From assembly GCA_963980215.1 (NCBI GenBank), contig CAXBYZ010000004.1, forward strand, positions 1 to 54,793: DNA of 54,793 nt. Direction: 5' to 3'. Source of the DNA: an uncultured bacterium (GTDB lineage: Bacteria; Patescibacteriota; Microgenomatia; UBA1400; CG1-02-47-37). The position numbers and the translations under genes were made by a program. Positions within the stretch are counted from its first letter, which is position 1; each line of letters opens with the position of its first letter. Positions 4,610 to 52,150 of the stretch are shown piece after piece. The notes below the pieces were generated by a model that searched no databases, was not told the origin of the DNA, and was given only the letters and a program-made list of their open reading frames with translations.

Positions 4610-5479
4610 ATGTATATAGATACGCATTGCCATCTTAACCTGAAAGATTTTGAGAGTGATTGGAGAGAAGTGGTTGAAAAAGCTAAAAAAGCTGGTGTTT
4701 CAAAGATGATTGTGGTGGGAGCTGACTTAAGTTCTAGCAAGAGAGCTATAGAAATGGCGGAAGAAGTTGAAGGTCTTTATGCTGTGGTTGGATTTCACCC
4801 ACATCACTGTAAGGGTCTTGATGATGTTGATGAGATGATGGCCTCAATAGAAAAACTTACCAAAAACAAGAAAGTGGTGGCTATTGGTGAGTGCGGGTTG
4901 GATTACCATGTGTATCAAAAATCTAAGTATGAAAAAACTCAAGTAACTGAGGATCAAAAAAAATTGCAAAAACGGGTGTTTGGGAGACAAATTCAATTAG
5001 CTAGTAAATTGAATTTACCTCTAGTAATTCACAATCGAGAAGCTCAAAGAGATATTTTGGATACAATTGACCATTTTTGTAAAAGTGATGGCAAGTACCC
5101 AAAAGGAGTGTTTCATTGTATTTCTGGCTCTAAAAAATTTGTGAAACAACTGATAGAGAGGGGTTTTTATGTAGGGGTAGACGGAAATGTTACGTATAGT
5201 AGTGAGGTTCAGGCTTTAGTAGATGAAATACCACTTGAACGATTGTTGCTTGAAACTGATTCTCCTTGGCTAACACCGGAGCCGTTACGTAGCCAACAGA
5301 AGGTTCCGAACCGTCTTTCGCTAAAGCTGCAGACCGCTGATGGTTTGGAACCAAAATTGAGAAATACTCCTATAAGTGTTAGAATCGTGGCCGAGTACTT
5401 ATCTCAAGCAAAAAATGTTAGCTTAGAAAAAATAAGAGCCTCAACGACTAAAAATGCTGAGGCTTTGTTTAATATATGA
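4610..5479 (+). CDS. tatD: TatD family hydrolase carrying a ~20-aa palindromic-element insertion
   Basis: 'IDTHCH', 'GFHPH', 'IGECGLDY', 'LLLETDSP'; extra peptide between 'PEPLR' and 'RNTP'. Confidence 0.93.
   Translation: MYIDTHCHLNLKDFESDWREVVEKAKKAGVSKMIVVGADLSSSKRAIEMAEEVEGLYAVVGFHPHHCKGLDDVDEMMASIEKLTKNKKVVAIGECGLDYHVYQKSKYEKTQVTEDQKKLQKRVFGRQIQLASKLNLPLVIHNREAQRDILDTIDHFCKSDGKYPKGVFHCISGSKKFVKQLIERGFYVGVDGNVTYSSEVQALVDEIPLERLLLETDSPWLTPEPLRSQQKVPNRLSLKLQTADGLEPKLRNTPISVRIVAEYLSQAKNVSLEKIRASTTKNAEALFNI
5300..5352 (+). repeat. family-I doublet, subtype A cargo, inside tatD
   Basis: AAGGTTCCGAAC-cgtctttcgctaaagctgcagaccgctgat-GGTTTGGAACC; homologous to 24054-24105 and 44075-44126. Confidence 0.9.
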
Positions 5480-11824: not shown

Positions 11825-11899
11825 GGCCTAGTGGCGAAGTGGAAACGCGGCTGTCTGCAAAACAGCTATGCGTCGGTTCGATTCCGACCTAGGCCTCCA
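11825..11899 (+). tRNA. tRNA-Cys (GCA)
   Basis: Acceptor stem GGCCTAG/CTAGGCC, anticodon arm GCTGT-CTGCAAA-ACAGC, T-loop GGTTCGATTCC, discriminator T and encoded CCA. Confidence 0.96.
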
Positions 11900-12845: not shown

Positions 12846-13553
12846 TTAGTATTCTACCCTAATTTCATGAATCCAAATTTTTGGAGGACGAGACAATATA
12901 TAGACAATGGTGTCGGCTAGATCTGCTGGATTAGTGAATTTTTCAAGAGGTGGGGTTTCTCCAGTTTTATGAAACATTTGAGTGTTGGTGCCACTTTGAT
13001 AAATTCCTGCAACCCTAATATGAGTGCCTTTAAGGTCGGCTTTTAGGGTTTCAGTAAAGCCTCTAACACCCCACTTACTAGCAGTGTAGACTGATTGACC
13101 AGCCTGAGCGGTGACACCAGATTTTGAAGAGACGTTGATGATGGCAGCGTCTTTTTGTGTTTTGAGGTGAGGCAAAATAAGATTGGTGGCGTGGATTAAA
13201 GAGGTTAAATTGGTTTGAATAACGTCGTCAATAATTACTGGCTTAACTTTTTCAATAGGCATCATTTTTTGCCAAATGCCAGCACAGTTGATTAAGATAT
13301 TAATTTGCTTGAAGTCTTTGGCAATAGATTTTATGGTTTGAGTTAGTTTTTCGGTGTTGCGAATATCACAAGGGTAGGCTTGAACTTTTTTGGCACCAAG
13401 CTTGCTGGCTTGTTTGGCAACTTCTTTTAAGTTTGATTCTGTTCGACTAATTAAAGCAAGGTTTGTGCCTTGTTTGGCTAGTTTTAGGGCAATTTGTTTG
13501 CCAATACCCTGACTAGCTCCGGTAATAATGGCGGTTTTGTTTTTTAAGTTCAT
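12846..13553 (-). CDS. short-chain dehydrogenase/reductase
   Basis: 'TGASQGIG', 'NCAG', 'YTASK'. Confidence 0.92.
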   Translation of the reverse strand: MNLKNKTAIITGASQGIGKQIALKLAKQGTNLALISRTESNLKEVAKQASKLGAKKVQAYPCDIRNTEKLTQTIKSIAKDFKQINILINCAGIWQKMMPIEKVKPVIIDDVIQTNLTSLIHATNLILPHLKTQKDAAIINVSSKSGVTAQAGQSVYTASKWGVRGFTETLKADLKGTHIRVAGIYQSGTNTQMFHKTGETPPLEKFTNPADLADTIVYILSRPPKIWIHEIRVEY

Positions 13554-14551
13554 AGTTTGTTTTTAATTTCTTTAATTGTATATCTTTTTTGCTTAAGTTG
13601 GCGAATTTTTTTAATTTGTTTAATCATGCTTGAGTCGTAAAGCTGGTAGCCACCGTTTGAGTGACTGCTGACAGTGAGTAAGCTTTGAGTTGTCCAGAAC
13701 CTAATAGTAGAAACTGTTTCTTTTGAGGCTTTAGCTAATTGACCAATTTTAAGTAAAGGTGAAGGTTTTTTGCTTGAAGGTTCCGAACTAAATTTCGGAA
13801 AGTTCGGAACCCGCGGAACTCTGGCGGACAGATAAATATCTAAAGAATTATTGACTGATTGGTAAATTAATTTATAGTAGCTGTCCAAGCTACCGCCTAT
13901 CTGAGCGGTTTCTAAAGATTTTAGATAGGCAAGTCTATTTGTTAGCTTAATAATAATAGGCGGATAGCCTGCTTTAATTAAGAAAAGGTTCATTAGTAGT
14001 CTAGCGGTGCGACCATTTCCGTCTGCAAAAGGGTGAATAGTAACCAAGTGATAGTGAGCATCAGCGGCTAGCTTAACTGGATGAAGTGATTTATTTAAGT
14101 TAATTTTGTGAACAAATTTGGTCATTAAGGTTTTGATTTTTGTTGGATTAGGCATGATGACTCTGGATCCAGCAATTCTAACGGCAGTGCTTCTGTATCT
14201 ACCAGCACTTTGATCGTCTATTTTTGAGAGAATTATTTGGTGAAGATCTAAAATGTCATTTTCTTTTAGAGTGTAGTTTTTTTTAGCAAGAGAATAAACA
14301 TAATCCAAGGCTTGGGCATGATTAGTGGCTTCTAGGTGTTCTTTTAAAGATTTACCGTTAACAGTGATGCCTTTATCTAAAACTATCGCAGTTTGCTGTC
14401 GTGAAAGAGTATTACCCTCAATAGCGTTTGAGGTGTAGGTTAACTCGACTCTAAGCCAATCCTTAAGGTTTCTAGATAGATCCTTTGGAAGAGGCTTGGC
14501 CTGATCGAGTTTTTTCTTTTTATCGTCAATAATCTTAAGCAGGTTTTTCAT
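13550..14551 (-). CDS. Fic family protein with C-terminal MerR-type HTH
   Basis: 'SNAIEGN' autoinhibitory motif, 'HPFADGNGRTAR', C-terminal 'LKIGQLAK...TIRFW...GGYQLY'. Confidence 0.88.
   Translation of the reverse strand: MKNLLKIIDDKKKKLDQAKPLPKDLSRNLKDWLRVELTYTSNAIEGNTLSRQQTAIVLDKGITVNGKSLKEHLEATNHAQALDYVYSLAKKNYTLKENDILDLHQIILSKIDDQSAGRYRSTAVRIAGSRVIMPNPTKIKTLMTKFVHKINLNKSLHPVKLAADAHYHLVTIHPFADGNGRTARLLMNLFLIKAGYPPIIIKLTNRLAYLKSLETAQIGGSLDSYYKLIYQSVNNSLDIYLSARVPRVPNFPKFSSEPSSKKPSPLLKIGQLAKASKETVSTIRFWTTQSLLTVSSHSNGGYQLYDSSMIKQIKKIRQLKQKRYTIKEIKNKL
13777..13811 (+). repeat. family-I doublet in the Fic-MerR linker
   Basis: AAGGTTCCGAAC-taaatttcggaa-AGTTCGGAACC; encodes RVPNFPKFSSEP on the minus strand. 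Confidence 0.88.
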
Positions 14552-14675: not shown

Positions 14676-14713
14676 AAGGTTCTGAACTCGAACTTCTTTT
14701 GAAGTTCGGAACC
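14676..14713 (+). repeat. family-I doublet, intergenic (3' of groEL)
   Basis: AAGGTTCTGAAC-tcgaacttcttttga-AGTTCGGAACC, with internal CGAACTTC-tttt-GAAGTTCG hairpin. Confidence 0.85.
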
Positions 14714-14725
14714 AACGAACTTTGC

Positions 14726-16679
<1,954 letters not shown>

Positions 16680-22561: not shown

Positions 22562-22584
22562 ATTTAAGGTTCGGAACCTTAAAT
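22562..22584. repeat. family-I extended singlet overlapping the stop codon of ORF 22579-24222
   Basis: ATTTAAGGTTC-G-GAACCTTAAAT, identical to 23034-23056. Confidence 0.9.
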
Positions 22585-24222
22585 AATTTTGTCATTTCTA
22601 ATAAACTTTTGTAGTTCTTTTTCTGAGTAGTGGCGGACTTTATATTTGAGGATTTTAGTGGTGGAGAGCTTGGGGTTGTGGGGGTGGACGACTATAACGG
22701 AGCCGCCAATTTGCTTCATGAGCTTTCGTTTAGCGGGAAGGTTTGGGGTGTGGGCGGAGACGGCAAGAATGTCAGGTCTAATTTTTTTTAGTAATTTTAG
22801 GTGATCAGTTGGGTTATCAAATTTTTCTGGGAGAGAGAAAATTTGATCGGCAATCCCCCACTTTTTTAGGTTTTTAATTCTGGTGTTTATGGGGTTAATG
22901 GGGCGGTTTTTGCCTTTGAGTTTTTTGACCCGGACGTCTGTTTCGAGGCCGACTAAAAGGATGTTTGGTGATACACCTCCGAGGTGCACCGCAGGTGCAA
23001 CCTCACCTCGGAGGTGGTGAGATTGGGGTGAAAATTTAAGGTTCGGAACCTTAAATTTTTTGGCGGCTTTGAGAAATTTTTTGTGTTCCTCATGAAGAAC
23101 GTCGAAGCAGCCGGTGATGAGGATTTTGGTAGACATTGAAGGTTCCGAACTAGCCTCGACATTCGTCGAGGTCGTCCCGATTAAATCGGAACTGGAAGTT
23201 CGGAACCCTACACCTTTAAGGACTGTCCTTAGCTTGGCTTTGTATTCCTTTATAACTATTTTGCCGGTGGGACGAGGGTGAAAAAAGGCAGAGTGAAGGG
23301 TGACTTTTTCGTTGGTGATTTTTTTCTTCATGTAAGCATATTGAAGCTTGAAGGCGAGGAGGTTGAGATAGTTCAATACAGAAGGTTCGGAACTAGCTCC
23401 GGTGTTCACCGGAGTTGCAAGATTACTTGCTGAAGTTCCGAACCAACGAGGCTTGGTGGTTTTATCTTCTGTTAAGAACTGTTCTTGTAGGGCGTTTTTG
23501 GGTAGTGCATTGGGTAAGAATTTTTTGACCCAAGAGTTTGTAGAGATAAATTTTTCGTAAGTTTGGTCTTTATTGTAAAGGGGTTTGATTTGGCAAACTT
23601 CGTGAGCAGTGTAGAGATTGCGGCGAGATTTAGGTATAGAAATGGATGATTCTTCTAAGAAAAGGTTGAGGCAGATGGCATTCTCGGGTCCGAGTACGGA
23701 CTCGAGTCCTTTAAGGTCCGGCCTTAAAGGAGTACCTTCAAGAACGGACCTTTTTTGAGGACGACGACGGAGGTGAAAGATTTCTAGGAGAGGAATAACC
23801 AACAAGCGAGTCAACCAAAGACGGTTGGTGGTGGTGACAATCATAAGATCGATGTCGTCGTTTTTGTCTGAGTTGTTCATGGCTAAGGCTCCGGTGACGG
23901 CAATTAATTTAACTGAAGGGATAGCACTTAAAATTTTAGATATTTTTTTAGCTTTAGTTAACTTTAATTGACTAAAGTGATGGCGAGATTTGCGGATCTT
24001 GGCAAGATGGGAGCGGTTTGGGAGGTGGTAATAATTGGAGGTTTTCCCAATCAAAGGTTCCGAACTGCCTTTCGCTTTGCTGCAGGTTGCTGAAAGTTCG
24101 GAACCAACGAGTCCTGAAAGAACGGACCTTTTATCTGAAATTAGCCATTTAATTATCTCTTTCTTGGTTAGAGGATAGTCGAAAATATCGGCATAAGCGA
24201 GAGTTTTTAAGATGGCTTCCAT
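22579..24222 (-). CDS. fusion of a Pol-beta-like nucleotidyltransferase domain and a cytidylyltransferase-like domain, with many palindromic insertions
   Basis: N-part 'AVTGALA...DDIDL'; C-part 'ITGCFDVLHEEH...LVGLETD..VKKLKG.NRP'. Confidence 0.72.
   Translation of the reverse strand: MEAILKTLAYADIFDYPLTKKEIIKWLISDKRSVLSGLVGSELSATCSKAKGSSEPLIGKTSNYYHLPNRSHLAKIRKSRHHFSQLKLTKAKKISKILSAIPSVKLIAVTGALAMNNSDKNDDIDLMIVTTTNRLWLTRLLVIPLLEIFHLRRRPQKRSVLEGTPLRPDLKGLESVLGPENAICLNLFLEESSISIPKSRRNLYTAHEVCQIKPLYNKDQTYEKFISTNSWVKKFLPNALPKNALQEQFLTEDKTTKPRWFGTSASNLATPVNTGASSEPSVLNYLNLLAFKLQYAYMKKKITNEKVTLHSAFFHPRPTGKIVIKEYKAKLRTVLKGVGFRTSSSDLIGTTSTNVEASSEPSMSTKILITGCFDVLHEEHKKFLKAAKKFKVPNLKFSPQSHHLRGEVAPAVHLGGVSPNILLVGLETDVRVKKLKGKNRPINPINTRIKNLKKWGIADQIFSLPEKFDNPTDHLKLLKKIRPDILAVSAHTPNLPAKRKLMKQIGGSVIVVHPHNPKLSTTKILKYKVRHYSEKELQKFIRNDKII
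22974..23016 (+). repeat. family-III doublet (CACCT-CCG-AGGTG ... CACCT-CGG-AGGTG)
   Basis: Same architecture as family I with a different stem; inner hairpin GCACC-gca-GGTGC; encodes HLRGEVAPAVHLGG. Confidence 0.85.
23031..23059. repeat. family-I extended singlet, intragenic
   Basis: AAAATTTAAGGTTC-G-GAACCTTAAATTTT (14-bp perfect arms); encodes KFKVPNLKF. Confidence 0.92.
23139..23207 (+). repeat. family-I doublet with two inner hairpins at the domain junction
   Basis: AAGGTTCCGAAC-ta-GCCTCGAC.attc.GTCGAGGT-cgtc-CCGATT.a.AATCGG-aactgga-AGTTCGGAACC. Confidence 0.92.
23217..23231. repeat. family-IV triloop hairpin (TAAGGA-CTG-TCCTTA); a variant AAGAA-CTG-TTCTT lies at 23474-23486
   Basis: Perfect stems with a CTG loop, each next to a family-I doublet. 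Confidence 0.55.
23382..23444 (+). repeat. family-I doublet with two inner hairpins (loop order swapped)
   Basis: AAGGTTCGGAAC-ta-GCTCCGGTG.tt.CACCGGAGT-t-GCAAG.atta.CTTGC-tga-AGTTCCGAACC. Confidence 0.92.
23684..23752 (+). repeat. family-II composite element (69 bp)
   Basis: TCGGGTCCG-agta-CGGACTCGA hairpin plus the 40-mer AAGGTCCGGCCTTAAAGGAGTACCTTCAAGAACGGACCTT (23713-23752). Confidence 0.93.
24054..24130 (+). repeat. family-I subtype A doublet (24054-24105) plus an internally deleted family-II remnant (24108-24130)
   Basis: AAGGTTCCGAAC-tgcctttcgctttgctgcaggttgctgaa-AGTTCGGAACC, then CGAGTCCT-ga-AAGAACGGACCTT. Confidence 0.9.
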
Positions 24223-25763: not shown

Positions 25764-27503
25764 ATGATAAGCAACATATATAAAAAAACAGTAGTAATAT
25801 TATTGGGGATTTTAGCTGGAATTACAGGGATTATGTTGTTGTATGGAGTTTCTTATTCCCAAAAGATATATCCCTTTTTATATGTTGGAAAAACTAATGT
25901 ATCTAACTTGAGTATTGATGAGGCGGAAAAAATATTGAGAGAGAAAATTCCCGAAGGGTTACAAGTGCTTGATGTTTGGTTTGGAAATCAGAGCTTTGCG
26001 GTGGAAGCGAGTGAGCTGGAGTATGATCCAAAATTGACGGCGGATAAAGCTTATTTGGTGGGGAGAGAAGGAAAGTTTCTTGATAATTTTAAAACTAAGT
26101 GGAGCTTGTGGTTTAGCAAAAAATCTTTAAGTTTTGAGTATAAGCTTAATAGTGAGGTGTTGGAGGAGCAGGTTGATTTATTGATATCTCAAGTGTCGGC
26201 GCCACCGATTTACTACTCTCTTTCTCAAACTCCGGAGGGTCAGATAGTGGTTGTGCCTGGGAAGAGTGGAAGAGTGGTTAATAAGAATAAGCTGATGAAA
26301 GATATTGATAAAGGACTTAGTAACTTGGATTTTTCTAAAATAGTAGTTGAGGCGAGTTTGATAGAAGTTGTTGTGAGTCAAGAAGAGTTGGAAAAAGCAC
26401 AAAGGAGAGGAGAGTTATTGAAAGAGAGAGTTTTGAGTTTGAAGTATGGAGATGGTGAGAAAAAAATTGAAGGTCAGGGCTTGATTGATTTGATTGATTT
26501 TAAGGGTGGTTTTGATGAAGAAAAAGTTAAAAAATTGATGGGATTGGTGAGTGAGGAAGTAAACCGAGAGCCTCAAAATGCTGTTTTTAGATTTGAAGGT
26601 GGAAGAGTGGTTGAGTTTAAGCCGGCTATAGATGGTCTTTTGGTGAATGAAGAAATTTCTATTATTAAGGTGGTTGATGGTCTTTCCAGGCTAGAAACTC
26701 TTAACTGTAAAGAAGTTTGCGAAACAATTATTGTTAACCTAGAAGTAGAGAAGTCTGCTCCAGAAGTTAGAATTAGTGAAGTTAATAATTTAGGAATTGT
26801 TGAGTTAATTGGAAAGGGTGAGTCAACCTTTCATGGATCGATACCCTCTAGAGAACATAATGTGGCTCTAACTGCTTATAAGTTAGATGGGGTATTAATT
26901 AAACCAGGAGAAGTGTTTTCGTTTAATGGAAGTGTGGGTGATATTTCGGCAGCAACTGGATACCAAAGTGCTTACATAATTAAAGATGGAAGAACTGTTT
27001 TGGGTGATGGAGGTGGAGTTTGCCAAGATTCGACAACAATGTTTAGAGCAGCACTTGATGCTGGATTGCCAATTATTGAAAGACACCCTCATGCATATAG
27101 GGTGAGTTATTATGAGCAAGGGTCGCCGGTGGGGATTGATGCTACGATTTACTCTCCTTCTACTGATTTCAAGTTTTTGAATGATACGCCGGCACATATA
27201 TTAATTCAGACAAATGTGAATACTGTGAGCAATTATTTAAAAATTGAAATTTATGGAACAAGCGATGGGAGAGTAGCAACAATTAGCAATACTAGATTGT
27301 GGGACCAGTCTCCCCCGCCAGATCCCAAGTACGAAGATACCCCGTCACTGGCTACTGGAGTAGTAAAACAGGTAGACTGGGCAGCTTGGGGAGGAAAAGC
27401 GGCTTTTGATTGGAGGGTGGTTAGAGGAGGTGAAGTTCTACAAGAAAAAACTTTTTACTCAAGCTATAGACCTTGGCAAGCAGTGTACTTAAGAGGAATA
27501 TGA
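25764..27503 (+). CDS. VanW family protein with peptidoglycan-binding domains
   Basis: 'GEVFSFN', 'GGGVCQDSTT', 'ERHPHAY', 'DATIY'. Confidence 0.9.
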   Translation: MISNIYKKTVVILLGILAGITGIMLLYGVSYSQKIYPFLYVGKTNVSNLSIDEAEKILREKIPEGLQVLDVWFGNQSFAVEASELEYDPKLTADKAYLVGREGKFLDNFKTKWSLWFSKKSLSFEYKLNSEVLEEQVDLLISQVSAPPIYYSLSQTPEGQIVVVPGKSGRVVNKNKLMKDIDKGLSNLDFSKIVVEASLIEVVVSQEELEKAQRRGELLKERVLSLKYGDGEKKIEGQGLIDLIDFKGGFDEEKVKKLMGLVSEEVNREPQNAVFRFEGGRVVEFKPAIDGLLVNEEISIIKVVDGLSRLETLNCKEVCETIIVNLEVEKSAPEVRISEVNNLGIVELIGKGESTFHGSIPSREHNVALTAYKLDGVLIKPGEVFSFNGSVGDISAATGYQSAYIIKDGRTVLGDGGGVCQDSTTMFRAALDAGLPIIERHPHAYRVSYYEQGSPVGIDATIYSPSTDFKFLNDTPAHILIQTNVNTVSNYLKIEIYGTSDGRVATISNTRLWDQSPPPDPKYEDTPSLATGVVKQVDWAAWGGKAAFDWRVVRGGEVLQEKTFYSSYRPWQAVYLRGI

Positions 27504-29029
27504 AAATGTTGCGCCCTCAAAGGTCCGGCCTTAAAGGAGTACCTTCAAGAACGGACCTTACTATGATAATAGTATTGGGTTTGTTAGGGTTACTATTAGT
27601 TCAGTGGTTGACTCCCAATATTTGGGGGGCAGATGGGTATTACCATATTCAACTGGCGGAGATGTTTAAGAATAGTGGTTTTTTGAAAACTTTGCCTCAA
27701 GCTAGATTTTCTCATTTTGTTGATAGATTTTCTAATAAAGATTGGCTCTATCACCTAGTGCTAGTACCCTTTACTGGTTTTAATAACCTTTTTGTGGGAG
27801 CAAAGTGGGCAGCTTTTGTGTTTGGAGGAATTTTATATAGTAGTTTGTTGATGGTTGCTAGTTACTATGTTTCTAGTGTTGGTTTGATAATTGTAGGGGT
27901 GTCCCCTTTTCTATCTAGTCATTTTATTCAGACTTTGTCTCGACCCAGACCGATGGTGCTGGGAATTACTCTTGGTCTATGGGTGGTTCACTTTTTGATT
28001 CAGAAAAAAAACAAGCAAGTTTTTTGGGGGTCTTTGGTTTACTCGATGATGCATATTACTGCGCCTTTGGTGATTGGATATGGAGTGGTGGTGAGTTTCT
28101 GGAGATGGTTGTTTAAAGAAAATTCCAGGTACGGAACCTGGAATTTAGTGGGGATGGCTGTTTTGGGAGTTTTGGGCGGGTTTATTCTACATCCTAATTT
28201 TCCTAATAACTGGTTTTATTTTTACTTAAACGGAATCTTGGTGCCGTTTTTCGCAGCCCGCTGGGGGGTTTTGGAGTTGGGGGCAGAGTTTTTTCCGATG
28301 ACCACCTTGGATTATTTTAAAAATTATCCCTTAATAGTTTTGGGATTGTTGTTTATGGTAGTAGTGGTTTTGGTGGAGAGACCAAAAGTAAAGAGTGAGA
28401 CTCAGGTAATGTTTTTGTTGACAAGTGTGTTTGTGGTGATGGGGATGATGAGTCAGAGATATATTGCTCATGGCTATCCTTTTATGGTTTTGAGTTTAGC
28501 TATGTTTGTTAGTGATTGGCACAGAGATAAGGAGTTTAAGAAATTTTTGAAGAAGATTGAGGGGGCAGTTAACTTAATTATGGTAAGTGGACTAATTATA
28601 GTGATATTGCTGATATTTAGTGGTTTTAAGAGAATGGTGGCAACGGCTAAGGGAACCAGCGTGATGAATGGCCACTACGAAGAGATGGGTGGGTGGCTAA
28701 AGGATAATGTGCCTGAAGGTGAGTTAATCTTTCATTCTAACTGGTCTGACTCCCAGTACTTTATTGGAGTTAATCCCAAAAATGATTATTTTGTAACTAT
28801 GGATCCTGTTTATATGTGGCATAAAAATCAAGAGGTGTATAAACTTTACCGAGCGGTGGCGTTTGGGCAAATCGAGGATCCTTATAAAGTTTTGAAAGAA
28901 GGGTTTAAAGTAAATTATGGTTATGTGGGGAAGAATTATTTTTCCGCTTTGGTTGATCAAATTAACAATGATGAGCGGTTTGAGGTGGTTAAAGAAGACC
29001 AATTTGGATTAATTTTTAAGTTAAAGTAA
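27500..29029 (+). CDS. GT-C-like polytopic membrane protein
   Basis: 'GADGYYHIQLA', 'WLYHLVL', many TM helices; start is ATG 27500 or 27563. Confidence 0.65.
   Translation: MKMLRPQRSGLKGVPSRTDLTMIIVLGLLGLLLVQWLTPNIWGADGYYHIQLAEMFKNSGFLKTLPQARFSHFVDRFSNKDWLYHLVLVPFTGFNNLFVGAKWAAFVFGGILYSSLLMVASYYVSSVGLIIVGVSPFLSSHFIQTLSRPRPMVLGITLGLWVVHFLIQKKNKQVFWGSLVYSMMHITAPLVIGYGVVVSFWRWLFKENSRYGTWNLVGMAVLGVLGGFILHPNFPNNWFYFYLNGILVPFFAARWGVLELGAEFFPMTTLDYFKNYPLIVLGLLFMVVVVLVERPKVKSETQVMFLLTSVFVVMGMMSQRYIAHGYPFMVLSLAMFVSDWHRDKEFKKFLKKIEGAVNLIMVSGLIIVILLIFSGFKRMVATAKGTSVMNGHYEEMGGWLKDNVPEGELIFHSNWSDSQYFIGVNPKNDYFVTMDPVYMWHKNQEVYKLYRAVAFGQIEDPYKVLKEGFKVNYGYVGKNYFSALVDQINNDERFEVVKEDQFGLIFKLK
27520..27559 (+). 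repeat. family-II 40-mer
   Basis: Identical to 23713-23752; reads RSGLKGVPSRTDL in the host frame. Confidence 0.95.
28120..28146. repeat. degenerate family-I extended singlet, intragenic
   Basis: AAATTCCAGGT-acgga-ACCTGGAATTT (core one mismatch from GGTTCGGAACC). Confidence 0.75.
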
Positions 29030-31823: not shown

Positions 31824-31843
31824 AGTTGTATTATAATACCTTT

Positions 31844-34075
31844 ATGGATAAAACTTATAAAGCATCAGATCATGAGGGGAAGATTTACCAGAAATGGGAG
31901 GAGTCGGGGGCGTTTGCACCTAGTGTAAACGGGAAACCATTTACAATTATTATGCCGCCGCCGAATGCTAATGACCCGCTTCATGTGGGACATGCCATGT
32001 TTATCTCAGTTGAGGATATCTTTATTCGATATAAGAGAATGCAAGGGTTTAGCACTTTGTGGTTGCCGGGAACAGACCACGCTGGGATAGAAACACAGTT
32101 TGTTTTTGAGAAGAAATTAAAAAAACAGGATAAAAGTCGATTTGACTATGACAGGGAGACTTTGTATCAAATGATTTGGGATTATGTGCAAGAAAACTCT
32201 GAGGTGGCAATTAATCAAATGAAGAAGCTTGGAGCTAGTGCTGACTGGAAGAGGAAGAAGTTTTCCTTGGATAAAGATGTTGTTGAGAAAGTTCTTGATA
32301 CTTTTATTCAGTTACATAAAGATGGGCTTATTTACAGGGACAACAAACTGGTTAATTTCTGTACTAGGTGTGGGACTGCATTTTCTAACTTGGAAGTTGT
32401 TCATACTGAGAAGAAATCTCCACTTTACTACATGAAGTATGGGCCATTTGTGTTAGCAACAACAAGGCCAGAAACTAAGTTTGGTGATACGGCAGTAGCC
32501 GTTCACCCCAAAGATAAGAGATATGCTAAATGGATTGGTAAGGAGATAGAAGTTGAGGGGTTGCTGGGTAAATTTATGATAAAAGTAGTGGCGGATGAGT
32601 ATGTGGATCCTAAGTTTGGAACTGGAGTGGTGAAGATAACTCCGGCACATGACTTTAATGACTTTGAAGTGGGTAAGAGACATAAGTTGGAAGTTAAGCA
32701 GGTGATTGGTTTTGATGGAAGATTAAATAAACACTGTGGAGAGTATGCTGGCTTAACGGTGTTTTCGGCCAGAGAAAAAGTGGTAGAGGGTTTGGAGAAA
32801 AAAGGTTTGATGGAAAAAATTGACAAAGATTATGTTCACTCCGTGGGGAGTTGTTATCGATGTGGGCGAGCAATTGAACCTCTTCCCTTACCTCAGTTTT
32901 TTATTAAAGTGAAGAATTTAACCAAGACCGTGCTTAAAGCTTTGAAAGAAAAAAAGGTGAAAGTTTATGGTTCGGGACATGAGAAAATATTAAAACACTG
33001 GCTAGAAAACTTAAATGATTGGAATATTAGTCGACAGATAGTTTGGGGGATTCGAATTCCGGTGTGGTACTGCAAGAAGATTGAAGGTTCCGAACTAGCC
33101 CAATCAAAGATTGGGTTGGCTAAAGCCAGAAGTTCGGAACCCTGTTATGTTGTTAGTAAAGATAAGCCAAACAAATGTAGTAAGTGTGGTTCAACAACGT
33201 TTGCACGGGATGAGGATACTTTTGACACATGGTTTTCTTCTGCACAGTGGCCGGTGGTGACTTTAAAAACAGGCAAAAAATCTGATTTTGAGAAGTTTTA
33301 TCCAACAGATTTGATGGAGACTGGATATGATATTCTTCCCTTCTGGGTGATGAGAATGTTGATGATGGGATTGTACTCAACTGGAAGAGTACCTTTTAAA
33401 AGTGTTTATCTTCATGGAATGGTGAGAGATGGTAGAGGACAAAAGATGAGTAAGAGTAAGGGTAATGTTATTAATCCGGTGGAGATTGTGGATAAGTATG
33501 GGGCCGATGCTCTAAGAATGGCCTTAGTGATGAGTAGTACGGCTGGAAATGATAAGTCTGTGGGGGATGAGACAATTAGAGGAATGAGAAATTTAACTAA
33601 TAAGATTTGGAATGCGGCGAGGTTTGTGATGGAGTTTTTGCCGGAGACGGCTAATAATCAAGGTTCCGAAGAACCTTTTTCGGGTTCGAGTACGAACTCG
33701 AGTCCTCAAAGGTCTGGCCTTAAAGGAGTACCTTCAAGAACAGACCTTAGTCAACAAAGTTCGAAACCATCTAGTTTTGAAGGAGATAAAGAGTTTGAGG
33801 AAGAGATTTCCAAGATTGTAAATGAGGTGACCAAACAGCTTGAAGACTACAAGTTGGGGTTGGCGGCGGAAACGGTGTATAACCAGTTTTGGCATTGGTT
33901 TTGTGATGAGTCCATCGAGTCGGCTAAAGAAGGTAAAGTTAGCTACCCTGTTTTGATGAATGGATTAAAGACATTTTTGAAACTTCTTCATCCTTTTGTA
34001 CCATTTGTAACAGAAGCAGTTTGGCAAGAACTTGGTGAAGAACAATTATTGATTACAAGTAAATGGCCTATTTAA
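31844..34075 (+). CDS. valS: valine--tRNA ligase (no C-terminal coiled coil; two element-derived insertions)
   Basis: 'PPPN', 'HVGH', 'GTDHAGI', 'WNISRQ', 'DTWFSS', 'KMSKS'; likely start MDKTY at 31844. Confidence 0.96.
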   Translation: MDKTYKASDHEGKIYQKWEESGAFAPSVNGKPFTIIMPPPNANDPLHVGHAMFISVEDIFIRYKRMQGFSTLWLPGTDHAGIETQFVFEKKLKKQDKSRFDYDRETLYQMIWDYVQENSEVAINQMKKLGASADWKRKKFSLDKDVVEKVLDTFIQLHKDGLIYRDNKLVNFCTRCGTAFSNLEVVHTEKKSPLYYMKYGPFVLATTRPETKFGDTAVAVHPKDKRYAKWIGKEIEVEGLLGKFMIKVVADEYVDPKFGTGVVKITPAHDFNDFEVGKRHKLEVKQVIGFDGRLNKHCGEYAGLTVFSAREKVVEGLEKKGLMEKIDKDYVHSVGSCYRCGRAIEPLPLPQFFIKVKNLTKTVLKALKEKKVKVYGSGHEKILKHWLENLNDWNISRQIVWGIRIPVWYCKKIEGSELAQSKIGLAKARSSEPCYVVSKDKPNKCSKCGSTTFARDEDTFDTWFSSAQWPVVTLKTGKKSDFEKFYPTDLMETGYDILPFWVMRMLMMGLYSTGRVPFKSVYLHGMVRDGRGQKMSKSKGNVINPVEIVDKYGADALRMALVMSSTAGNDKSVGDETIRGMRNLTNKIWNAARFVMEFLPETANNQGSEEPFSGSSTNSSPQRSGLKGVPSRTDLSQQSSKPSSFEGDKEFEEEISKIVNEVTKQLEDYKLGLAAETVYNQFWHWFCDESIESAKEGKVSYPVLMNGLKTFLKLLHPFVPFVTEAVWQELGEEQLLITSKWPI
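33084..33141 (+). repeat. family-I doublet with two inner hairpins inside valS
   Basis: AAGGTTCCGAAC-ta-GCCCAATC.aaa.GATTGGGT-TGGCT.aa.AGCCA-ga-AGTTCGGAACC. Confidence 0.93.
33660..33768 (+). repeat. nested element in valS: degenerate family-I arms enclosing a family-II composite (33680-33748)
   Basis: AAGGTTCCGAA...TCGGGTTCG-agta-CGAACTCGA...AAGGTCTGGCCTTAAAGGAGTACCTTCAAGAACAGACCTT...AAGTTCGAAACC. Confidence 0.92.
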
Positions 34076-42942: not shown

Positions 42943-44067
42943 ATGAAAGTTTCGTTATTGCAAGAGAATTTAGCCAAAGGGGTGATGATGGTTGGTAGGA
43001 TGGTAGCAAGTAAGGCGCAGTTGCCGGTTTTATCTAATATTTTGCTGGTAACAGAGTCTGGAAAGTTAAGAGTGTCAGCAACAAATTTAGAAACAGGAAT
43101 GAATGTGTGGATTTCCTCAAAGATAGATGAGCCTGGAAAGATTACGGTGCCTGCTAAGATATTTATGGAGCTGGTGAGCTCTTTACCTAAAGAGACAGTT
43201 ATTCTTGAGACTGAGGGAGAGAAGATTAAGGTGACTTGCGGCAAGTTTAAAGCAACGGTTAATGGGATATTGGCTGAAGAGTTTCCTGAGGTACCAAGTC
43301 TAAAAAGTGGGAGTAAAAAAGGAGTTGAGTCTTTAAAGATAAAAACAAGCGTTTTTGAGAGCTTTATCGATCAAGTGGCTATGGCAGCTGGAGTGGATGA
43401 AGCAAGGCCAATTTTTACTGGAGTGAAGTGGGAGATAGGTAAAAACATTAAGCTAGCAGCTACAGATGGTTACCGTTTGAGCGTAAAGAAGATTAAGGGG
43501 GTGTCATGGTCTGGAGAGAAAAAAGAGATGATAGTGCCGGCTAAGGCATTAATGGAGATAACCAAGATCGTTTCTAAGGTAGATGATGATGAAGTGTTAG
43601 TAGCGGTGACGGATAAAGATAAGCAGTTAATACTGGCTCTTAAAGATGTTGAGGTGGTAACTAGGTTGATTGAGGGAGAGTTCCCTGATTTTGAGAAGAT
43701 AATTCCAACAACAGCAAGTAGTACGGTTGAACTTGATAGAGAGGAGTTGACTCAGGCGGTGAGGGCGGTGGCCATCTTTGCTAGAGATAGTGCCAACATT
43801 GTTAAGTTTAAGGTGACGGATAAATATTTATTGATTTCGGCAAATGCCCCACAAGTGGGAGAGAACGAGGTCGGAGTGAGTGTTGAAAGAAAGGGAGAAG
43901 AGACAGAGATAGCTTTTAATAGTAGATATTTATTAGAAATTTTATCTTTGGTGAAGGCTGAGAGATTAACTTTATCGATGTCTGGGCCGTTAAATCCTGG
44001 TGTTTTTAGGGAAGTTCCTGACCAAGACTTTTTACATATTATTATGCCGGTGAGGGTGCAGGGGTAG
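42943..44067 (+). CDS. dnaN: DNA polymerase III beta clamp
   Basis: 'PVLSNILL', 'ATNLE', 'ATDGYRL', 'LIEGEFP', 'IIMPVR'; AAGGAG RBS. Confidence 0.97.
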   Translation: MKVSLLQENLAKGVMMVGRMVASKAQLPVLSNILLVTESGKLRVSATNLETGMNVWISSKIDEPGKITVPAKIFMELVSSLPKETVILETEGEKIKVTCGKFKATVNGILAEEFPEVPSLKSGSKKGVESLKIKTSVFESFIDQVAMAAGVDEARPIFTGVKWEIGKNIKLAATDGYRLSVKKIKGVSWSGEKKEMIVPAKALMEITKIVSKVDDDEVLVAVTDKDKQLILALKDVEVVTRLIEGEFPDFEKIIPTTASSTVELDREELTQAVRAVAIFARDSANIVKFKVTDKYLLISANAPQVGENEVGVSVERKGEETEIAFNSRYLLEILSLVKAERLTLSMSGPLNPGVFREVPDQDFLHIIMPVRVQG

Positions 44068-46030
44068 AGTCGTTAGGTTCCGAACTGCCTTTCGCTGGCG
44101 CTGCAGGCCGCTGAAAGTTCGGAACCGTGGCCGGTGAGGGTGCAGGGGTAGATGTTGGGTTGGTTGCGGGGGCGGGCTGTTTGTTGGCCAGTACTTCTTT
44201 GGGGTCACTGGTGATAAGAGCGTGTTCGTCTGGTGAGGCAACCACCTTTACAGCTACGTGGTTTTGACCAGCGAAGATAATACCGTGGCCAATGCCGGCC
44301 CCTAAAAGTAAGTGTTTTTCTCCTTCGGAAAGGTAAAAGATTTTAGCTAGCTTGTCGATAGCGGCGGTACTTTGTTTCATTAAAATTTGAATTGAAGAGT
44401 TGGTGACGATGGCTTTGCCGTAGTCTGAGGAGAGAAAGTCTTCGACATCTTGAGTGATGGTGGTTAAACCCAGATAGTATTTCCTGGCCCTTTTGGCCAT
44501 GGAGTAGAGGAAGCTAGCTGAGTCTGGGTATTTCATCATGTACCAAGCCTCGTCGACGACTAGTAGCCTTTTTTTTAGGTCTTTTTTAACTTTTGTCCAG
44601 ATGTGATCTAGAATCATGAACATGGCAATAGGGCGAAGGGCATCTTCTAGTTCCTGAATAGAGAAAACAGTAAAAGTGTTTTGAATGTCAACATTGGTGT
44701 GTTGGTCAAAGATGCCCCGAAAGGAGCCTTTGACAAATTTTTCTAGGCGAGCGGCCAAGTTAAGGGCAGCGGTTTCTTCCATGCCGATTAAAACTTTATA
44801 CAGGTCTTCAAGGAGAGGGGGTTCTTTTTTTTGAGTGGCAGGGTCGGGGGTGATGCCTTTTTGTTTGTAGGTTAAGATAATACTTCTATCTAGAAGAGCT
44901 TCTTCTTGAGGGGAGAGGTCACCCATGATGATTTTAAAGAGGGAGTGAAGAGAGAGAATTTTTTGGGAAAGTTCGTTTTGACCTTCTTCATAAACTTGAG
45001 ATAGGTCAAAGGGGTTTATTTTTGAAGTAGATTTAAAAGAAAATTGAATGTATTGACCGCCCACGGATTCACAGAGTTTTTGATACTCGTTTTCAGGATC
45101 GATAATGATGACTTCAGTGTCAAACATTAATGACCTTAGGGCTTCAAGTTTAACAAGGTATGATTTACCAGCACCAGATTTAGCAAAGACGACGGAGTTA
45201 GCGTTTTCAAGAGAAAATCGGTCGAGAATAATGAGAGAACTGTTGTGCTGATTGATGCCGTACAAAACACCCGTATCTTGAGTTAACTCTGAAGAGGTAA
45301 AGGGAAAAGTGGTGGCTAGAGAGGTGGTGTCCATGTTTCTGGTGATCATTAGTCGATCTTGAGCTAAAGGGAGAGTGGTTTTGAAGGCGTCATTCATTTG
45401 AAGGCTGGCTGGTTTGGCAATGATCATGAGCGAGCCTAGGGCTGATTGAACTTGTTTGGTAATTTTATTTAATTCTTCTAAGGAGTCGGCAGGGATAGTA
45501 ATGTAGAGGCCAAATTGAAAGAATCTCTCAGAGCCTTTAGCTAACTCAATTTGAAGAGACCTGGCATCTTCTAGTTGAACTTTGGTGGAGACGTCGGCAA
45601 TTTTACCCCTTTCAATGTCTGACTGGATCTCGGCCTCCATTTCCCCGACTTTTCTTCTTAGATCACTCATGATGCCACGGCCATCGATGGGGTAGATATA
45701 CATGGAAATATTAAGAGAGTGTCTAAAGTTGATTAAGGGGGAGAGCCAGTTGGCGTTGACAAAGCGAGGGTAGCCAGAGACAAAAAGGGTGCGAAAGTAG
45801 GTGTTGTCAATTTTTTGGTGAGAAAAGTCAATTTCGATGGCTGAGGGGGCAATTATATCCTGGACAGAGGTGACTCCTCGGGAGAACTGATCTTGTTCAA
45901 AGCTGGTTTCTTGTTTGGTTTGTTTCGGGGTGGCCTGAGAAGCCGGGTTTGGGGTTGGCGAGTCACCTGGTTTTTGATCAGCTTTTGGGGTCGATGGAGG
46001 TTTTTTGGGTAGAGAAAGATTAAGTTTCAT
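44042..46030 (-). CDS. VirB4/TraC-like ATPase
   Basis: Walker A 'AKSGAGKS', 'IIDPENEY', 'VVDEAW', 'RARKY', 'ITQ'; likely start MKLNL at 46030. Confidence 0.88.
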   Translation of the reverse strand: MKLNLSLPKKPPSTPKADQKPGDSPTPNPASQATPKQTKQETSFEQDQFSRGVTSVQDIIAPSAIEIDFSHQKIDNTYFRTLFVSGYPRFVNANWLSPLINFRHSLNISMYIYPIDGRGIMSDLRRKVGEMEAEIQSDIERGKIADVSTKVQLEDARSLQIELAKGSERFFQFGLYITIPADSLEELNKITKQVQSALGSLMIIAKPASLQMNDAFKTTLPLAQDRLMITRNMDTTSLATTFPFTSSELTQDTGVLYGINQHNSSLIILDRFSLENANSVVFAKSGAGKSYLVKLEALRSLMFDTEVIIIDPENEYQKLCESVGGQYIQFSFKSTSKINPFDLSQVYEEGQNELSQKILSLHSLFKIIMGDLSPQEEALLDRSIILTYKQKGITPDPATQKKEPPLLEDLYKVLIGMEETAALNLAARLEKFVKGSFRGIFDQHTNVDIQNTFTVFSIQELEDALRPIAMFMILDHIWTKVKKDLKKRLLVVDEAWYMMKYPDSASFLYSMAKRARKYYLGLTTITQDVEDFLSSDYGKAIVTNSSIQILMKQSTAAIDKLAKIFYLSEGEKHLLLGAGIGHGIIFAGQNHVAVKVVASPDEHALITSDPKEVLANKQPAPATNPTSTPAPSPATVPNFQRPAAPAKGSSEPNDSTPAPSPA
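44046..44152 (+). repeat. family-I subtype A doublet (44075-44126) flanked by a perfect 23-bp direct repeat
   Basis: GCCGGTGAGGGTGCAGGGGTAGA at 44046-44068 and 44130-44152. Confidence 0.93.
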
Positions 46031-46721
46031 TTTGAGTAGGAGTATCTTTTGATATGGAAGCATTGACAATGGCAACTTCTGATTCTGAGCGATTGGTGAA
46101 ATCGACATTGCCAGAATTGGGATTGTAGTAGTTGAAAAAGAGTTTAATTAGTTGTGGGGTGGTGAGTTGCTTGGTTTTTAAACCAAGCCGAGAGAGTTGG
46201 GTGATGAGGTGATCTTTTTTTGGAATTAGGCTAGTTTTGGCTTTTTCAATCAGGACACTTTTGTCTAGGGTAAAGTTTTTTTGTTTTTTAAAAGCGGTAG
46301 ATAAAGTAGAAGAGACGCCCATTTCTAAACTAGAAAAAGGAAGAGATAGGTAAAACTTTTTGTCTAAGACCTCATTTTCTTTGACGGTTTGTTGGATAAA
46401 TTGATAGTATTTTTCCAGTTGAGTTTTAAGGAGGGGGTTGGTGATTCTTTGTTTTTGAGCATTTAAAAGACCAAGGTAAGAGTTGATGTTTTTCTTTTGA
46501 GAAGTAATTAAAATTTGAACTGGAAAGTTTAGAGAGTTTAGAAGACCAGCGTAGGCGTAGATGGTGGCGTCTTGTTCTCCCTCTGAAAGTAAAGAAAAGT
46601 TAACTGCTGATGTTTGAAGAATGATACAGGCAGAGCCATCTTTTAAGACAATCATGTCCTCTCGAATGTCTTCGATGTCCATGTGACTTTGAGTGCTGGT
46701 TTTGATTTGAGTGGCAGGCAT
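46020..46721 (-). CDS. conserved protein upstream of VirB4 (TraC/TraE N-terminal-like)
   Basis: 'STQSHMDIEDIRE', 'AVNFSLLSEGEQDA', 'LNFPVQI'; operon context. Confidence 0.65.
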   Translation of the reverse strand: MPATQIKTSTQSHMDIEDIREDMIVLKDGSACIILQTSAVNFSLLSEGEQDATIYAYAGLLNSLNFPVQILITSQKKNINSYLGLLNAQKQRITNPLLKTQLEKYYQFIQQTVKENEVLDKKFYLSLPFSSLEMGVSSTLSTAFKKQKNFTLDKSVLIEKAKTSLIPKKDHLITQLSRLGLKTKQLTTPQLIKLFFNYYNPNSGNVDFTNRSESEVAIVNASISKDTPTQNET

Positions 46722-51405: not shown

Positions 51406-51432
51406 ACATGAAGGTTACGAACCTTCATGTAG
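51406..51432 (+). repeat. RAYT-flanking palindrome (3' of the gene)
   Basis: ACATGAAGGTT-ACG-AACCTTCATGT-AG; identical to 52124-52150. Confidence 0.95.
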
Positions 51433-51435
51433 AAA

Positions 51436-52062
51436 CTATTCTAAGGATAGCTTTGTAAGTTTTTGGGCTATATTTTCTTTGGTGGGGGAGGAAAGAAAAC
51501 TTGAATAATTCTTGGTTAGTTTTAAGACATATTCCGGATACAGCCAGTCTGTGGGATCGGTTTTTTTAAGATATTCTGGTAGAGAAGAATATGAGGTTTT
51601 GTGGAGATGAATGTATTTTGAGAGTTGCAATAACTGTTCACTGGAATCAACAACTACATTTTTGTAGCGACCCTGGAAGATAGCGCCGGAATGTTTGTGA
51701 TGGCTTTGAAAGTACATGGCATAGGTAATCATTAATCTTCGCATAAGATTAGAAATGTTGGTTTTATTGTCTGCAGTGGGCATGGGTTTTAAAATGAAGT
51801 GAAAGTGGTTGGGCATGAGACAGTAGGCAACAATTCTAACGGAGTCAACATGAAGGTTACGAACCTTACTGTAGGGTTTTTGGACGGTGTCTTTGTAGGA
51901 GAAATATTTGGCAGTAGGGAATTTTAGGTAGTAGATGAGAATTTCAATGAAAGTGTCGTAATCTTTTTTGTCTTTAAAGATTTTATGTTTGTAAGCACCA
52001 CGATTAAAGATGTGATAAAAATGTTGAGGTCTGAAATTTCTATTGTAATACTCACTGGGCAT
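51436..52062 (-). mobile_element. HUH/Y1 tyrosine transposase, REP-associated (RAYT, IS200-like Y1_Tnp)
   Basis: 'FYHIFNRG', 'AYCLMPNHFH' (HUH), 'GAIFQGRYK', 'YIH', 'YSS'; palindromes on both sides; no tnpB. Confidence 0.9.
51848..51874 (+). repeat. palindrome copy inside the RAYT coding sequence
   Basis: ACATGAAGGTTACGAACCTTACTGTAG, identical to 52078-52104; encodes YSKVRNLHV. Confidence 0.93.
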
Positions 52063-52077
52063 TAATTTAAGTATAGC

Positions 52078-52150
52078 ACATGAAGGTTACGAACCTTACT
52101 GTAGCGCGAGGGCTTGGGGTGTTACATGAAGGTTACGAACCTTCATGTAG
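52078..52150 (+). repeat. two tandem RAYT-flanking palindromes (5' of the gene)
   Basis: 52078-52104 and 52124-52150; the second supplies the TAA of ORF 52133-52474. Confidence 0.95.

Follow-up and report, generated by a model that had tools for sequence, protein, structure and literature searches.

We report here that valS, the gene for valyl-tRNA synthetase (ValRS) in an uncultured bacterium of the Microgenomates group of the candidate phyla radiation (CPR), carries two in-frame inserts that are copies of dispersed palindromic repeats. The gene lies on contig CAXBYZ010000004.1 (assembly GCA_963980215.1), whose 54,793 nucleotides, numbered on the forward strand, were analysed in full and are referred to below as the window. 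The inserts are probably mobile repeats similar to repetitive extragenic palindromic (REP) sequences and their hairpin-forming doublets (REPINs), which have been retained in the gene, are translated as disordered loops, and are tolerated by an enzyme that remains functional. We observed identity of the inserts with repeats located elsewhere, their in-frame status, a single copy of valS, conservation of the remainder of the protein, predicted disorder of the inserted residues, absence of the inserts from orthologues, and re-use of the same protein loops by other elements. The features of the gene are as follows.

31826..34075, plus strand: valS, valine--tRNA ligase, the longest open reading frame (ORF), 749 aa, assigned by NCBIfam and Pfam profiles.
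33086..33141, no strand assigned: insert 1, a palindromic element of class C, 56 nt, encoding residues 421-439 (GSELAQSKIGLAKARSSEP), stop-free and in frame.
33176..33187, plus strand: second half of the zinc knuckle, C451-S-K-C454, intact in the sequence and aligning to C438-x2-C441 of the Thermus thermophilus ValRS structure 1gax.
33662..33768, no strand assigned: insert 2, a composite of 107 nt encoding residues 613-648 (36 aa), in frame and located before the anticodon-binding domain.
33660-33677, no strand assigned: part of insert 2, a small REP-like hairpin (AAGGTTCCGAAGAACCTT), read from the sequence.
33677-33749, no strand assigned: part of insert 2, the two-hairpin module of repeat family D1.
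33759-33768, no strand assigned: part of insert 2, a degenerate end (GTTCGAAACC), read from the sequence.

Insert 1 is bounded by perfect 10-nt inverted repeats (GGTTCCGAAC / GTTCGGAACC), and the protein sequence around it reads VWYC416-KKIE-GSELAQSKIGLAKARSSEP-C440-YVVSKDKPNK-C451-SK-C454. All four putative knuckle cysteines (416, 440, 451 and 454) are present, and because the element lies between Cys416 (codon 33071-33073) and Cys440 (codon 33143-33145), the first two are 23 residues apart (C-x23-C). The initial annotation had contrasted this spacing with a usual one of about 2 residues. The C-x23-C arrangement is as claimed; the baseline of 2 is uncertain for this lineage, in that deletion of the element from valS in silico leaves C-x4-C, not C-x2-C, and the nearest Cys-bearing relatives (L010 and L012) have C-x8-C. 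As judged from sequence, then, insert 1 splits the first Cys pair of the putative knuckle, the baseline spacing of which is not CxxC in the strict sense. In 1gax, the closest solved structure (E 1.5e-166), the position of insert 1 is occupied by C417-x2-C420 ... C438-x2-C441 (alignment numbering). Among 65 Microgenomates-group ValRS sequences, 30 have CxxC...CxxC in this loop, referred to here as loop 1, and 21 have no Cys there, on which account the knuckle appears to be dispensable in this clade. The DNA of insert 1 has a predicted folding energy of -32.1 kcal/mol (z -7.4; none of 200 shuffled sequences was equally stable), and the predicted shape is a three-way junction, in which an 11-bp closing stem encloses two inner hairpins.

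The protein sequence at insert 2 reads NKIWNAARFVMEFLPETANNQ-GSEEPFSGSSTNSSPQRSGLKGVPSRTDLSQQSSKP-SSFEG, in which the stretch after NKIWNAARF is rich in Ser, Pro and Gly; the length of about 36 aa originally proposed for an insert at this position is borne out by the sequence. The linker that follows 'NAARFV' is about 15 residues long in 1gax vs 50 here. The core of the insert (33677-33748) is 90% identical to 23681-23752 of the window, a third copy is located at 27488-27559, and the D1 peptide it encodes was also found in three other long ORFs. Its predicted fold (-38.6 kcal/mol, z -4.2) is also very stable. Six of 72 positions differ between the D1 copy in valS and that at 23681-23752, and four of these six make up two compensatory changes from C.G to T.A pairs, in both stems. 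The same changes alter the peptide encoded by the valS copy, from P to S and from D to N.

That both inserts derive from dispersed elements, as had been suggested from the letters of the window, is clear from the abundance of their relatives. Allowing one mismatch, we counted 58 occurrences of the end motif GGTTCSGAAC in the window, where 3.1 were expected (sd 1.8; no more than 7 in any of 100 shuffles), and about 50 paired elements with ends of the GGTTCCGAAC...GTTCGGAACC type are present across the genome. Comparison of the genome with itself yielded 185 short repeated stretches, nearly all of them palindromic, in families of up to ~20 copies, and perfect hairpins (stem of at least 9, loop of 5 or fewer) numbered 158 vs 17-24 in shuffled sequences. 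We catalogued 49 composite copies, after removal of spurious script pairings (for example 32969-33096, 23040-23151 and C2 20791-20928), in four families:

A34: ~33-37 nt, 18 copies.
B50: ~50-59 nt, 11 copies.
Class C: 55-67 nt, 11 copies, including insert 1.
D1: 42-77 nt, 9 copies, including the core of insert 2.

The terminal stems of composite elements are 10-11 bp and enclose 12-87 nt. All 11 class C copies fold into the same three-way shape with inner stems that differ in sequence, as judged copy by copy, since a MAFFT alignment of the 11 misregisters the inner stems. Roughly two thirds of the composite copies (32/49, a fraction that is approximate because the underlying ORF map is crude) lie 20 or more codons inside ORFs of 150 aa or more, as do 11/11 of class C. 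In the direction of the host gene, mostly one or two of the three frames of a copy are free of stops, and mostly one of three for class C. Hosts confirmed by Pfam include Sua5-TsaE, TsaD, IF-2, TrmD, Obg, a RadA-like ATPase, a P-type ATPase, adenylosuccinate lyase, TatD and a Fic-MerR protein, together with RecF and an ATP-dependent DNA ligase, which carry two inserts each. Copies in spacers are placed as REPs usually are, an example being 14678-14713, right after a stop codon. Elements of these families with exact ends were confined to three genera, all of one family (17, 5, 17, 5, 2 and 1 per genome); 35 further genomes of the order had none, and a reversed control gave 0.

Misassembly does not account for the inserts, since contigs from independent samples run through insert 1 (X7 record 26, 32992-33187) and insert 2 (X10 record 12, 33601-33847) with 0 differences, and X5 record 21 also covers insert DNA, with one difference. 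The supporting runs are marine or seawater metagenomes, and the same insert sequence was present in samples dated 2012-2020. Contig 'joints' (for example 33049 to 33215) were considered as possible empty sites and discarded; these contigs come from other organisms and have unknown letters between the joined parts. Separately, we noted that valS of genome G001 (L016; contigs C4 and C10) lies in pieces on two contigs, one of the breaks being near residue 603 and next to the site of insert 2, and that Logan contigs of run X1 begin or end at insert 1 (33112-33139). Assembly breaks caused by repeats may hide such inserts in CPR genomes derived from metagenomes.

The lengths of the two loops were compared with those in orthologues. 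Loop 2 (R599 to A680) has 80 residues here and is the longest of 65; the median of the 64 others is 48 and the next longest is 69. Loop 1 (P412 to D464) has 51 residues, against three modes seen in the group: 32-33 residues with a plain CxxC...CxxC knuckle, 69-75 residues with an extra domain of ~40 aa, and 25-26 residues with no cysteines. Orthologues free of the repeat have shorter loops; loops of equal length in them had been raised as something that would count against inserted elements.

Orthologues do not have these two inserts, but relatives in the same family hold different palindromic DNA at both sites: at site 1 in L016 (ends AAGGTCGGACCTT), L018 (a D1-like hairpin) and L013, and at site 2 in L030, L009, L011, L015 and L024. 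When 30 valS genes were scanned for inverted repeats on the basis of perfect 9-nt stems, the output was about as noisy as chance, and fold z-scores of the two loops were used in its place. Loop DNA folds with z of -3.3 or below at site 1 in 5 genes out of 30 and at site 2 in 7 out of 29; the other genes have values of about -2.8 to +1.3, around zero. Similarly, for TrmD and for IF-2, the elements at one site differ among genome G000 and its congeners, and G003, G004 and G010 have none. Re-use of sites could come from selection for permissive loops, from a preference for insertion beside an existing hairpin, or from both.

Two further observations concern such sites. In TrmD of G001 (L158, C32) an element of D1 type, whose peptide (FSGSSTNSSPQRSGLKGLPSRTDL...) is like that of ValRS insert 2, is located where G000 has an element of B50 type, and a second insert of ~50 aa is present; the open frame is 315 aa vs ~225-250 in relatives. 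In valS of G017 (L031), from another family of the order, a stretch of loop 1 with extra Cys residues (…KKDCPCKK…) folds strongly (z -7.3), and may represent a palindromic insert acquired independently, outside family f1.

One may ask whether the inserts have been co-opted, either because the peptide loops add a function to ValRS, such as a new contact with tRNA, protein or membrane, or because the hairpins act in cis on valS mRNA or DNA, through stability, pausing of translation, or signals for replication or transcription, and are kept by selection. Hairpins that are preserved through compensatory changes, the repeated occupation across species of the two ValRS loops and of the TrmD and IF-2 sites, and the constancy of the insert sequence in samples from 2012 to 2020 all speak for this possibility, which we nevertheless regard as improbable. 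The occupants of a site vary by species and many relatives are empty, which leaves neither a particular peptide nor a particular hairpin conserved there; the peptide sequence is altered where the hairpin persists; and the inserts are predicted to be disordered. Furthermore, the compensatory changes may stem from a mobile source copy of D1 rather than having originated in place.

A second alternative, also contemplated in the initial annotation, is that the inserts are lost after transcription, either because the RNA is cut and religated or because ribosomes bypass (hop over) them, such that the mature protein is without them. The very stable folding of both inserts (z -7.4 and -4.2) would suit this scheme, and the same GAA codon stands at both ends of insert 1 (ATT GAA GGT ... 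TCG GAA CCC), where the two could conceivably serve as take-off and landing codons. In T4 gene 60 and in the mitochondrial 'byp' gaps, however, which are comparable to the present case as short hairpin-forming inserts in coding sequence, the bypassed segments have stops or frame shifts, matched take-off and landing codons, and a stop beside the take-off site. Unlike these, both valS inserts are open and in frame, and no stop codon follows the putative take-off codon. More generally, intragenic copies of the elements are stop-free and frame-keeping, a constraint that sequence destined to be skipped would not need, and excision of the 56-nt or 107-nt units bounded by inverted repeats would shift the frame. 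The elements are also far below the size of self-splicing introns; no Rfam family, including self-cleaving ribozymes and introns, matched 33040-33820 at E up to 1, and the only Rfam match in the window at gathering score is a tRNA at 11825-11896. By eye, no hammerhead-like core motifs were seen in classes B and C. Open inserts that keep the frame are, moreover, the expected outcome of survivorship under translation. We saw no positive sign of removal of the inserts and judge it to be very improbable. Readings of the inserts as an intein, an intron or a bulge-helix-bulge substrate were set aside on grounds of size and motifs, with no formal test.

The remainder of the enzyme looks intact. The valS product scores 837.2 bits against NCBIfam NF004349 (equivalog cut-off 704) and 806.2 bits against TIGR00422 (cut-off 612.1), contains the Pfam domains tRNA-synt_1 and Anticodon_1, and has the sequences PLHVGH (~residues 51-56), KMSKS (540-544), TTRPET and GTGVVKITPAHD, which we take to be the HIGH-type, KMSKS and editing-domain signatures of ValRS. 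At the 173 columns that are at least 95% conserved among the 64 other Microgenomates-group ValRS sequences, this protein deviates at none, and neither stops nor frameshifts interrupt its ORF. An AlphaFold2 model built on an alignment with these 64 relatives had a mean predicted local distance difference test score (pLDDT) of 87.6 and a predicted template modeling score of 0.85, and matched 1gax_A best in the PDB (E 8.3e-62, TMq 0.82). As can be seen from the regions of pLDDT below 50, which are limited to residues 1-4, 419-434, 610-626 and 628-649, the model is confident in its fold and of low confidence at both inserts. ValRS of this bacterium shares with 1gax the enzyme and the fold, insert 1 being placed where 1gax has its CxxC...CxxC knuckle, and differs in the split first Cys pair, in an anticodon-domain linker that is ~35 residues longer, and in the C terminus. 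Both this protein and its CPR relatives (~690-820 aa) stop near position 696 of the 860-position profile, and they are thus without the C-terminal extension of T. thermophilus ValRS (862 aa). As regards the N terminus, the valS ORF opens with a TTG located 6 codons upstream of an ATG at 31844; this ATG (M7, 'MDKTYK') is the likely start, and it is where relatives begin. Apart from two floppy loops, then, the enzyme looks normal and functional by profile and by model.

These data bear on the possibility that valS is decaying, its function being supplied by a second valS or by a host or partner cell, with the inserts as marks of relaxed selection. CPR bacteria are thought to be dependent on partner cells, and a gene could be absent from an assembly in 45 contigs. 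We looked for a second ValRS and found none in the 0.82-Mb (820-kb) genome, which is 99.97% complete; other matches to a ValRS query were three long ORFs that represent class-I paralogues, 26-39% identical (one of them the methionyl-tRNA synthetase encoded in the window), and short matches to the D1 peptide. Together with the intact conserved columns, the score above the equivalog cut-off, the confident fold model and the occurrence of the same kind of insert in many other core genes, this makes decay a highly unlikely explanation, rated by us below removal or skipping of the inserts after transcription. The idea that the loops are ordinary lineage-specific expansions, their likeness to repeats being coincidental or secondary, can draw on the natural variability of loop 1 in the group (25 to 80 residues), and is practically negligible in view of near-identical DNA copies in unrelated genes and spacers, shared inverted ends far above chance (58 vs 3.1), and confinement of the families to three genera with 0 in the reversed control.

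We favour, instead, the first of the choices offered in the initial annotation, namely toleration of the inserts in an essential enzyme, to which the shorter loops of orthologues, the single gene copy and the lack of decay all point. In mechanistic terms, the elements would be short, non-autonomous hairpin repeats of REP-dimer or REPIN-like type, in which GGTTCCGAAC...GTTCGGAACC ends surround variable hairpins. In a gene-dense genome of ~0.8 Mb they would land mostly within genes, and the survivors would be only those copies that are free of stops, preserve the frame and lie in permissive surface loops. The valS inserts would be transcribed and translated into disordered loops of 19 aa and 36 aa, the first in a putatively dispensable zinc-knuckle loop and the second in the linker before the helical anticodon-binding domain. 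Movement of the elements, into the strand that is single-stranded at replication, might be due to Y1 (HUH) transposases, for which the genome has many genes. Those most pertinent to the window are listed here.

51436..52062, minus strand: a Y1 transposase gene similar to REP-associated tyrosine transposase (RAYT) genes; Pfam Y1_Tnp 33.9 bits, NCBIfam REP_Tyr_transpos 37.6 bits (cut-off 80).
51406-51430 and 52123-52149: palindrome ACATGAAGGTTACGAACCTTCATGT, flanking the above gene in a REPtron-like layout.

Sixteen genes for proteins of ~210-235 aa matched Pfam Y1_Tnp (30.7-50 bits; cut-off 23), and we term them RAYT-like because the NCBIfam score is below its cut-off. At least nine of the 16 have a perfect palindrome of their own on either side, which differs from gene to gene, as in a REPtron. 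For one such gene, on contig C14, the palindrome is ATTTAAGGTTCCGAACCTTAAAT, and within it is the 11-nt core (GGTTCCGAACC) of the ValRS insert ends. There are 1-18 Y1 genes per genome in this family, vs 0-6 in other families of the order. Some Y1 genes also carry their own flanking palindrome inside the reading frame (C14 5700-5722, C23 4787-4807, C5 33788-33808, C8 24945-24965, C15 8632-8656 and also C30 6931-6947); in three RAYT-like genes the internal palindrome is about 62 codons from the start. A palindrome in this position could be a means of self-regulation or a self-target.

The orientation of the elements is consistent with their mobilization as single strands. GC skew in the window is positive in all 1-kb bins but one (0.05 to 0.49; one of -0.06), whatever the direction of the genes, such that the plus strand is G-rich, and every other contig has a strong skew of a single sign. 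Single-sign GC skew has been described for the order UBA1400 (Collier-, Beckwithbacteria and Ch65), and read as one-directional replication (PMC7143001). With respect to the G-rich strand, alignment placed 9/9 D1 copies and 11/11 B50 copies in the same orientation (for B50 the catalogued copies were aligned, a fuzzy motif scan having given many spurious matches), and for A34 it placed 15 of 18 in the same orientation, none in the opposite one, and 3 as ambiguous. By their conserved junction motifs, 11/11 class C copies are likewise oriented alike. Simple palindromes are also biased with regard to strand (GGTTACGAACC 29 to 3; TCGAGGTTACGAACCTCGA 14 to 1). Since the elements have one orientation and their host genes are located on both strands, the rule appears to follow replication, not transcription. 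Hairpin-recognising Y1 transposases such as those of IS608 and ISDra2 act on the lagging-strand template, and action of this kind leads one to expect a fixed orientation relative to replication. The shared core sequence, the strand orientation and the expansion of Y1 genes in the same family are indirect evidence that the RAYT-like Y1 transposases move the elements as single-stranded DNA, a proposal to which we give about even chances.

Several of our observations weigh against the above interpretation. Aligned as wholes, class C copies gave 9 in the same orientation, 1 opposite and 1 ambiguous, calls that are not uniform because the interiors are too variable for the alignment method. REP_Tyr_transpos was the only match for the three of the 16 Y1 proteins scanned, at 37.6-41.6 bits and hence below the cut-off of 80; none of the 16 Y1 genes of the genome is flanked by a full composite element; and an empty-site allele for the elements was not found. 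The longest-ORF map from which we counted intragenic copies has a coding fraction of 0.95 and is probably over-called, and the identity of host genes is backed by homology for those genes that were scanned with Pfam. We infer that the inserts are translated, from frame and stop statistics only, and that they are tolerated. Finally, a stable hairpin (-32 kcal/mol) in the mRNA of an essential gene might be costly or might have a role.

A wider interpretation, which we advance tentatively and with clearly less than even expectation, is that in this CPR lineage, in which GC skew points to one-directional replication, REPIN-like repeats driven as single-stranded DNA by an expanded set of RAYT-like Y1 proteins have moved into coding sequence because there is almost no intergenic space left. 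Here the hairpin would be kept by compensatory change while the frame is kept open, and the same permissive loops of ValRS, TrmD and IF-2 would be used again and again.

'Selfish' palindromes that sit in frame in essential genes are familiar from textbooks as a curiosity of Rickettsia; the Rickettsia palindromic elements (RPEs) were reportedly described by Ogata et al. in 2000 and 2002, and retention at the RNA level has been reported for them. The elements described here are like RPEs in being short palindromes placed in frame in many unrelated and often essential genes of a small genome, with peptides judged compatible with the fold of the host protein and with additional copies in spacers. 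They are unlike RPEs in size (33-107 nt, as compared to about 100-150 bp), presumably in sequence, in residing in a CPR bacterium and not an alphaproteobacterium, and in coexisting with 16 RAYT-like genes that have cognate palindromes and with a near-absolute strand orientation. A review presents RPEs as in-frame palindromic repeats in essential genes (PMC10969869). We regard our elements as an analogue of the RPEs and not as a member of the group because the host, as its ValRS relatives indicate, is a Microgenomates-group CPR bacterium.

The likeness to REP and REPIN-RAYT systems, the subject of Bertels and Rainey 2011, consists of high-copy hairpin repeats that are often inverted dimers, of Y1 genes with their own REPs, and of several types per genome. 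Classical REPs, in contrast, are mostly extragenic, whereas about two thirds of our composite copies are intragenic. The classical REP tag, GTAG or CGTC, is absent from the outer ends of our elements; in class C an invariant (C)TAG is found ahead of the inner hairpin. Also, RAYTs usually number one to a few per genome, as opposed to 16 in 0.82 Mb. Intragenic REPs from several bacteria, mostly dimers that encode 20-30 aa and sometimes two per ORF, so that the proteins are 'REP-decorated', were described along with REPtrons by Di Nocera et al. 2013 (PMC3733652). With the IS200/IS605 group (IS608, ISDra2; background in PMC6006769) the present elements share the association with Y1 HUH transposases and the fixed orientation relative to GC skew, and they are unlike that group in that no transposase is located within the elements.

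The same source, a survey of Y1 endonucleases (PMC6006769), makes no mention of Microgenomates, Parcubacteria or Patescibacteria, nor does the word intragenic occur in it. Our search of the literature on palindromic insertions or RAYT/REPIN systems in CPR bacteria or Patescibacteria, including works since 2012 that cite the RPE studies, found no report, subscription journals and supplements lying outside its coverage. In-frame palindromic elements are thus apparently unreported so far for CPR bacteria, and the notable particulars of the present case are their density in a genome of 0.8 Mb, the translation genes among their hosts, the many RAYT-like genes, the strand rule and the re-use of loops.

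For ValRS alone the finding is modest. Occurrence of the Rickettsia phenomenon in an ultra-small CPR genome, on the other hand, would show it to be a general outcome of the activity of hairpin elements in gene-dense genomes, and the lineage would be both a natural experiment as to which protein loops tolerate 10-40 extra residues and a clean system for relating single-strand transposition to one-directional replication. If the wider interpretation is true, the elements would systematically generate variation in the loops of proteins in minimal genomes and would provide a natural map of sites that tolerate insertion. On the practical side, the inserts inflate and vary the lengths of proteins, and break assemblies at repeats, in metagenomic CPR genomes.

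Other composite copies in the window illustrate the range of locations in which the elements were found.

5302..5352, no strand assigned: B50 copy, in frame in the TatD-family gene 4610..5479 (plus strand; Pfam TatD_DNase at residues 3-288, a 253-position profile).
13779..13811, no strand assigned: A34 copy, in frame between the Fic and MerR domains of ORF 13550..14551 (minus strand).
14678..14713, no strand assigned: A34 copy, intergenic, just downstream of ORF 14726..16384 (minus strand).
44076..44126, no strand assigned: B50 copy, in the last 11 codons of the TraG-like ORF 44042..46108 (minus strand).
23141..23207 and 23384-23444: class C copies in the 547-aa ORF 22579..24222 (minus strand).
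23680-23756: D1 copy in the same ORF.
24056-24105: B50 copy in the same ORF.
22973-23017 and 23030-23060: palindromes in the same ORF.

The only Pfam domain of ORF 22579..24222 is cytidylyltransferase-like and is located at residues 422-524, and the N-terminal ~400 residues hold at least six palindromic elements. This N-terminal region is either a protein that is largely built of repeats or a spacer filled with repeats that stays open by chance. Lastly, a D1 copy at 27488-27562 is located at the junction between the VanW-like ORF 25764..27503 and the start (TTG) of ORF 27473..29029; it may be intergenic, or it may encode the N terminus of the downstream protein.

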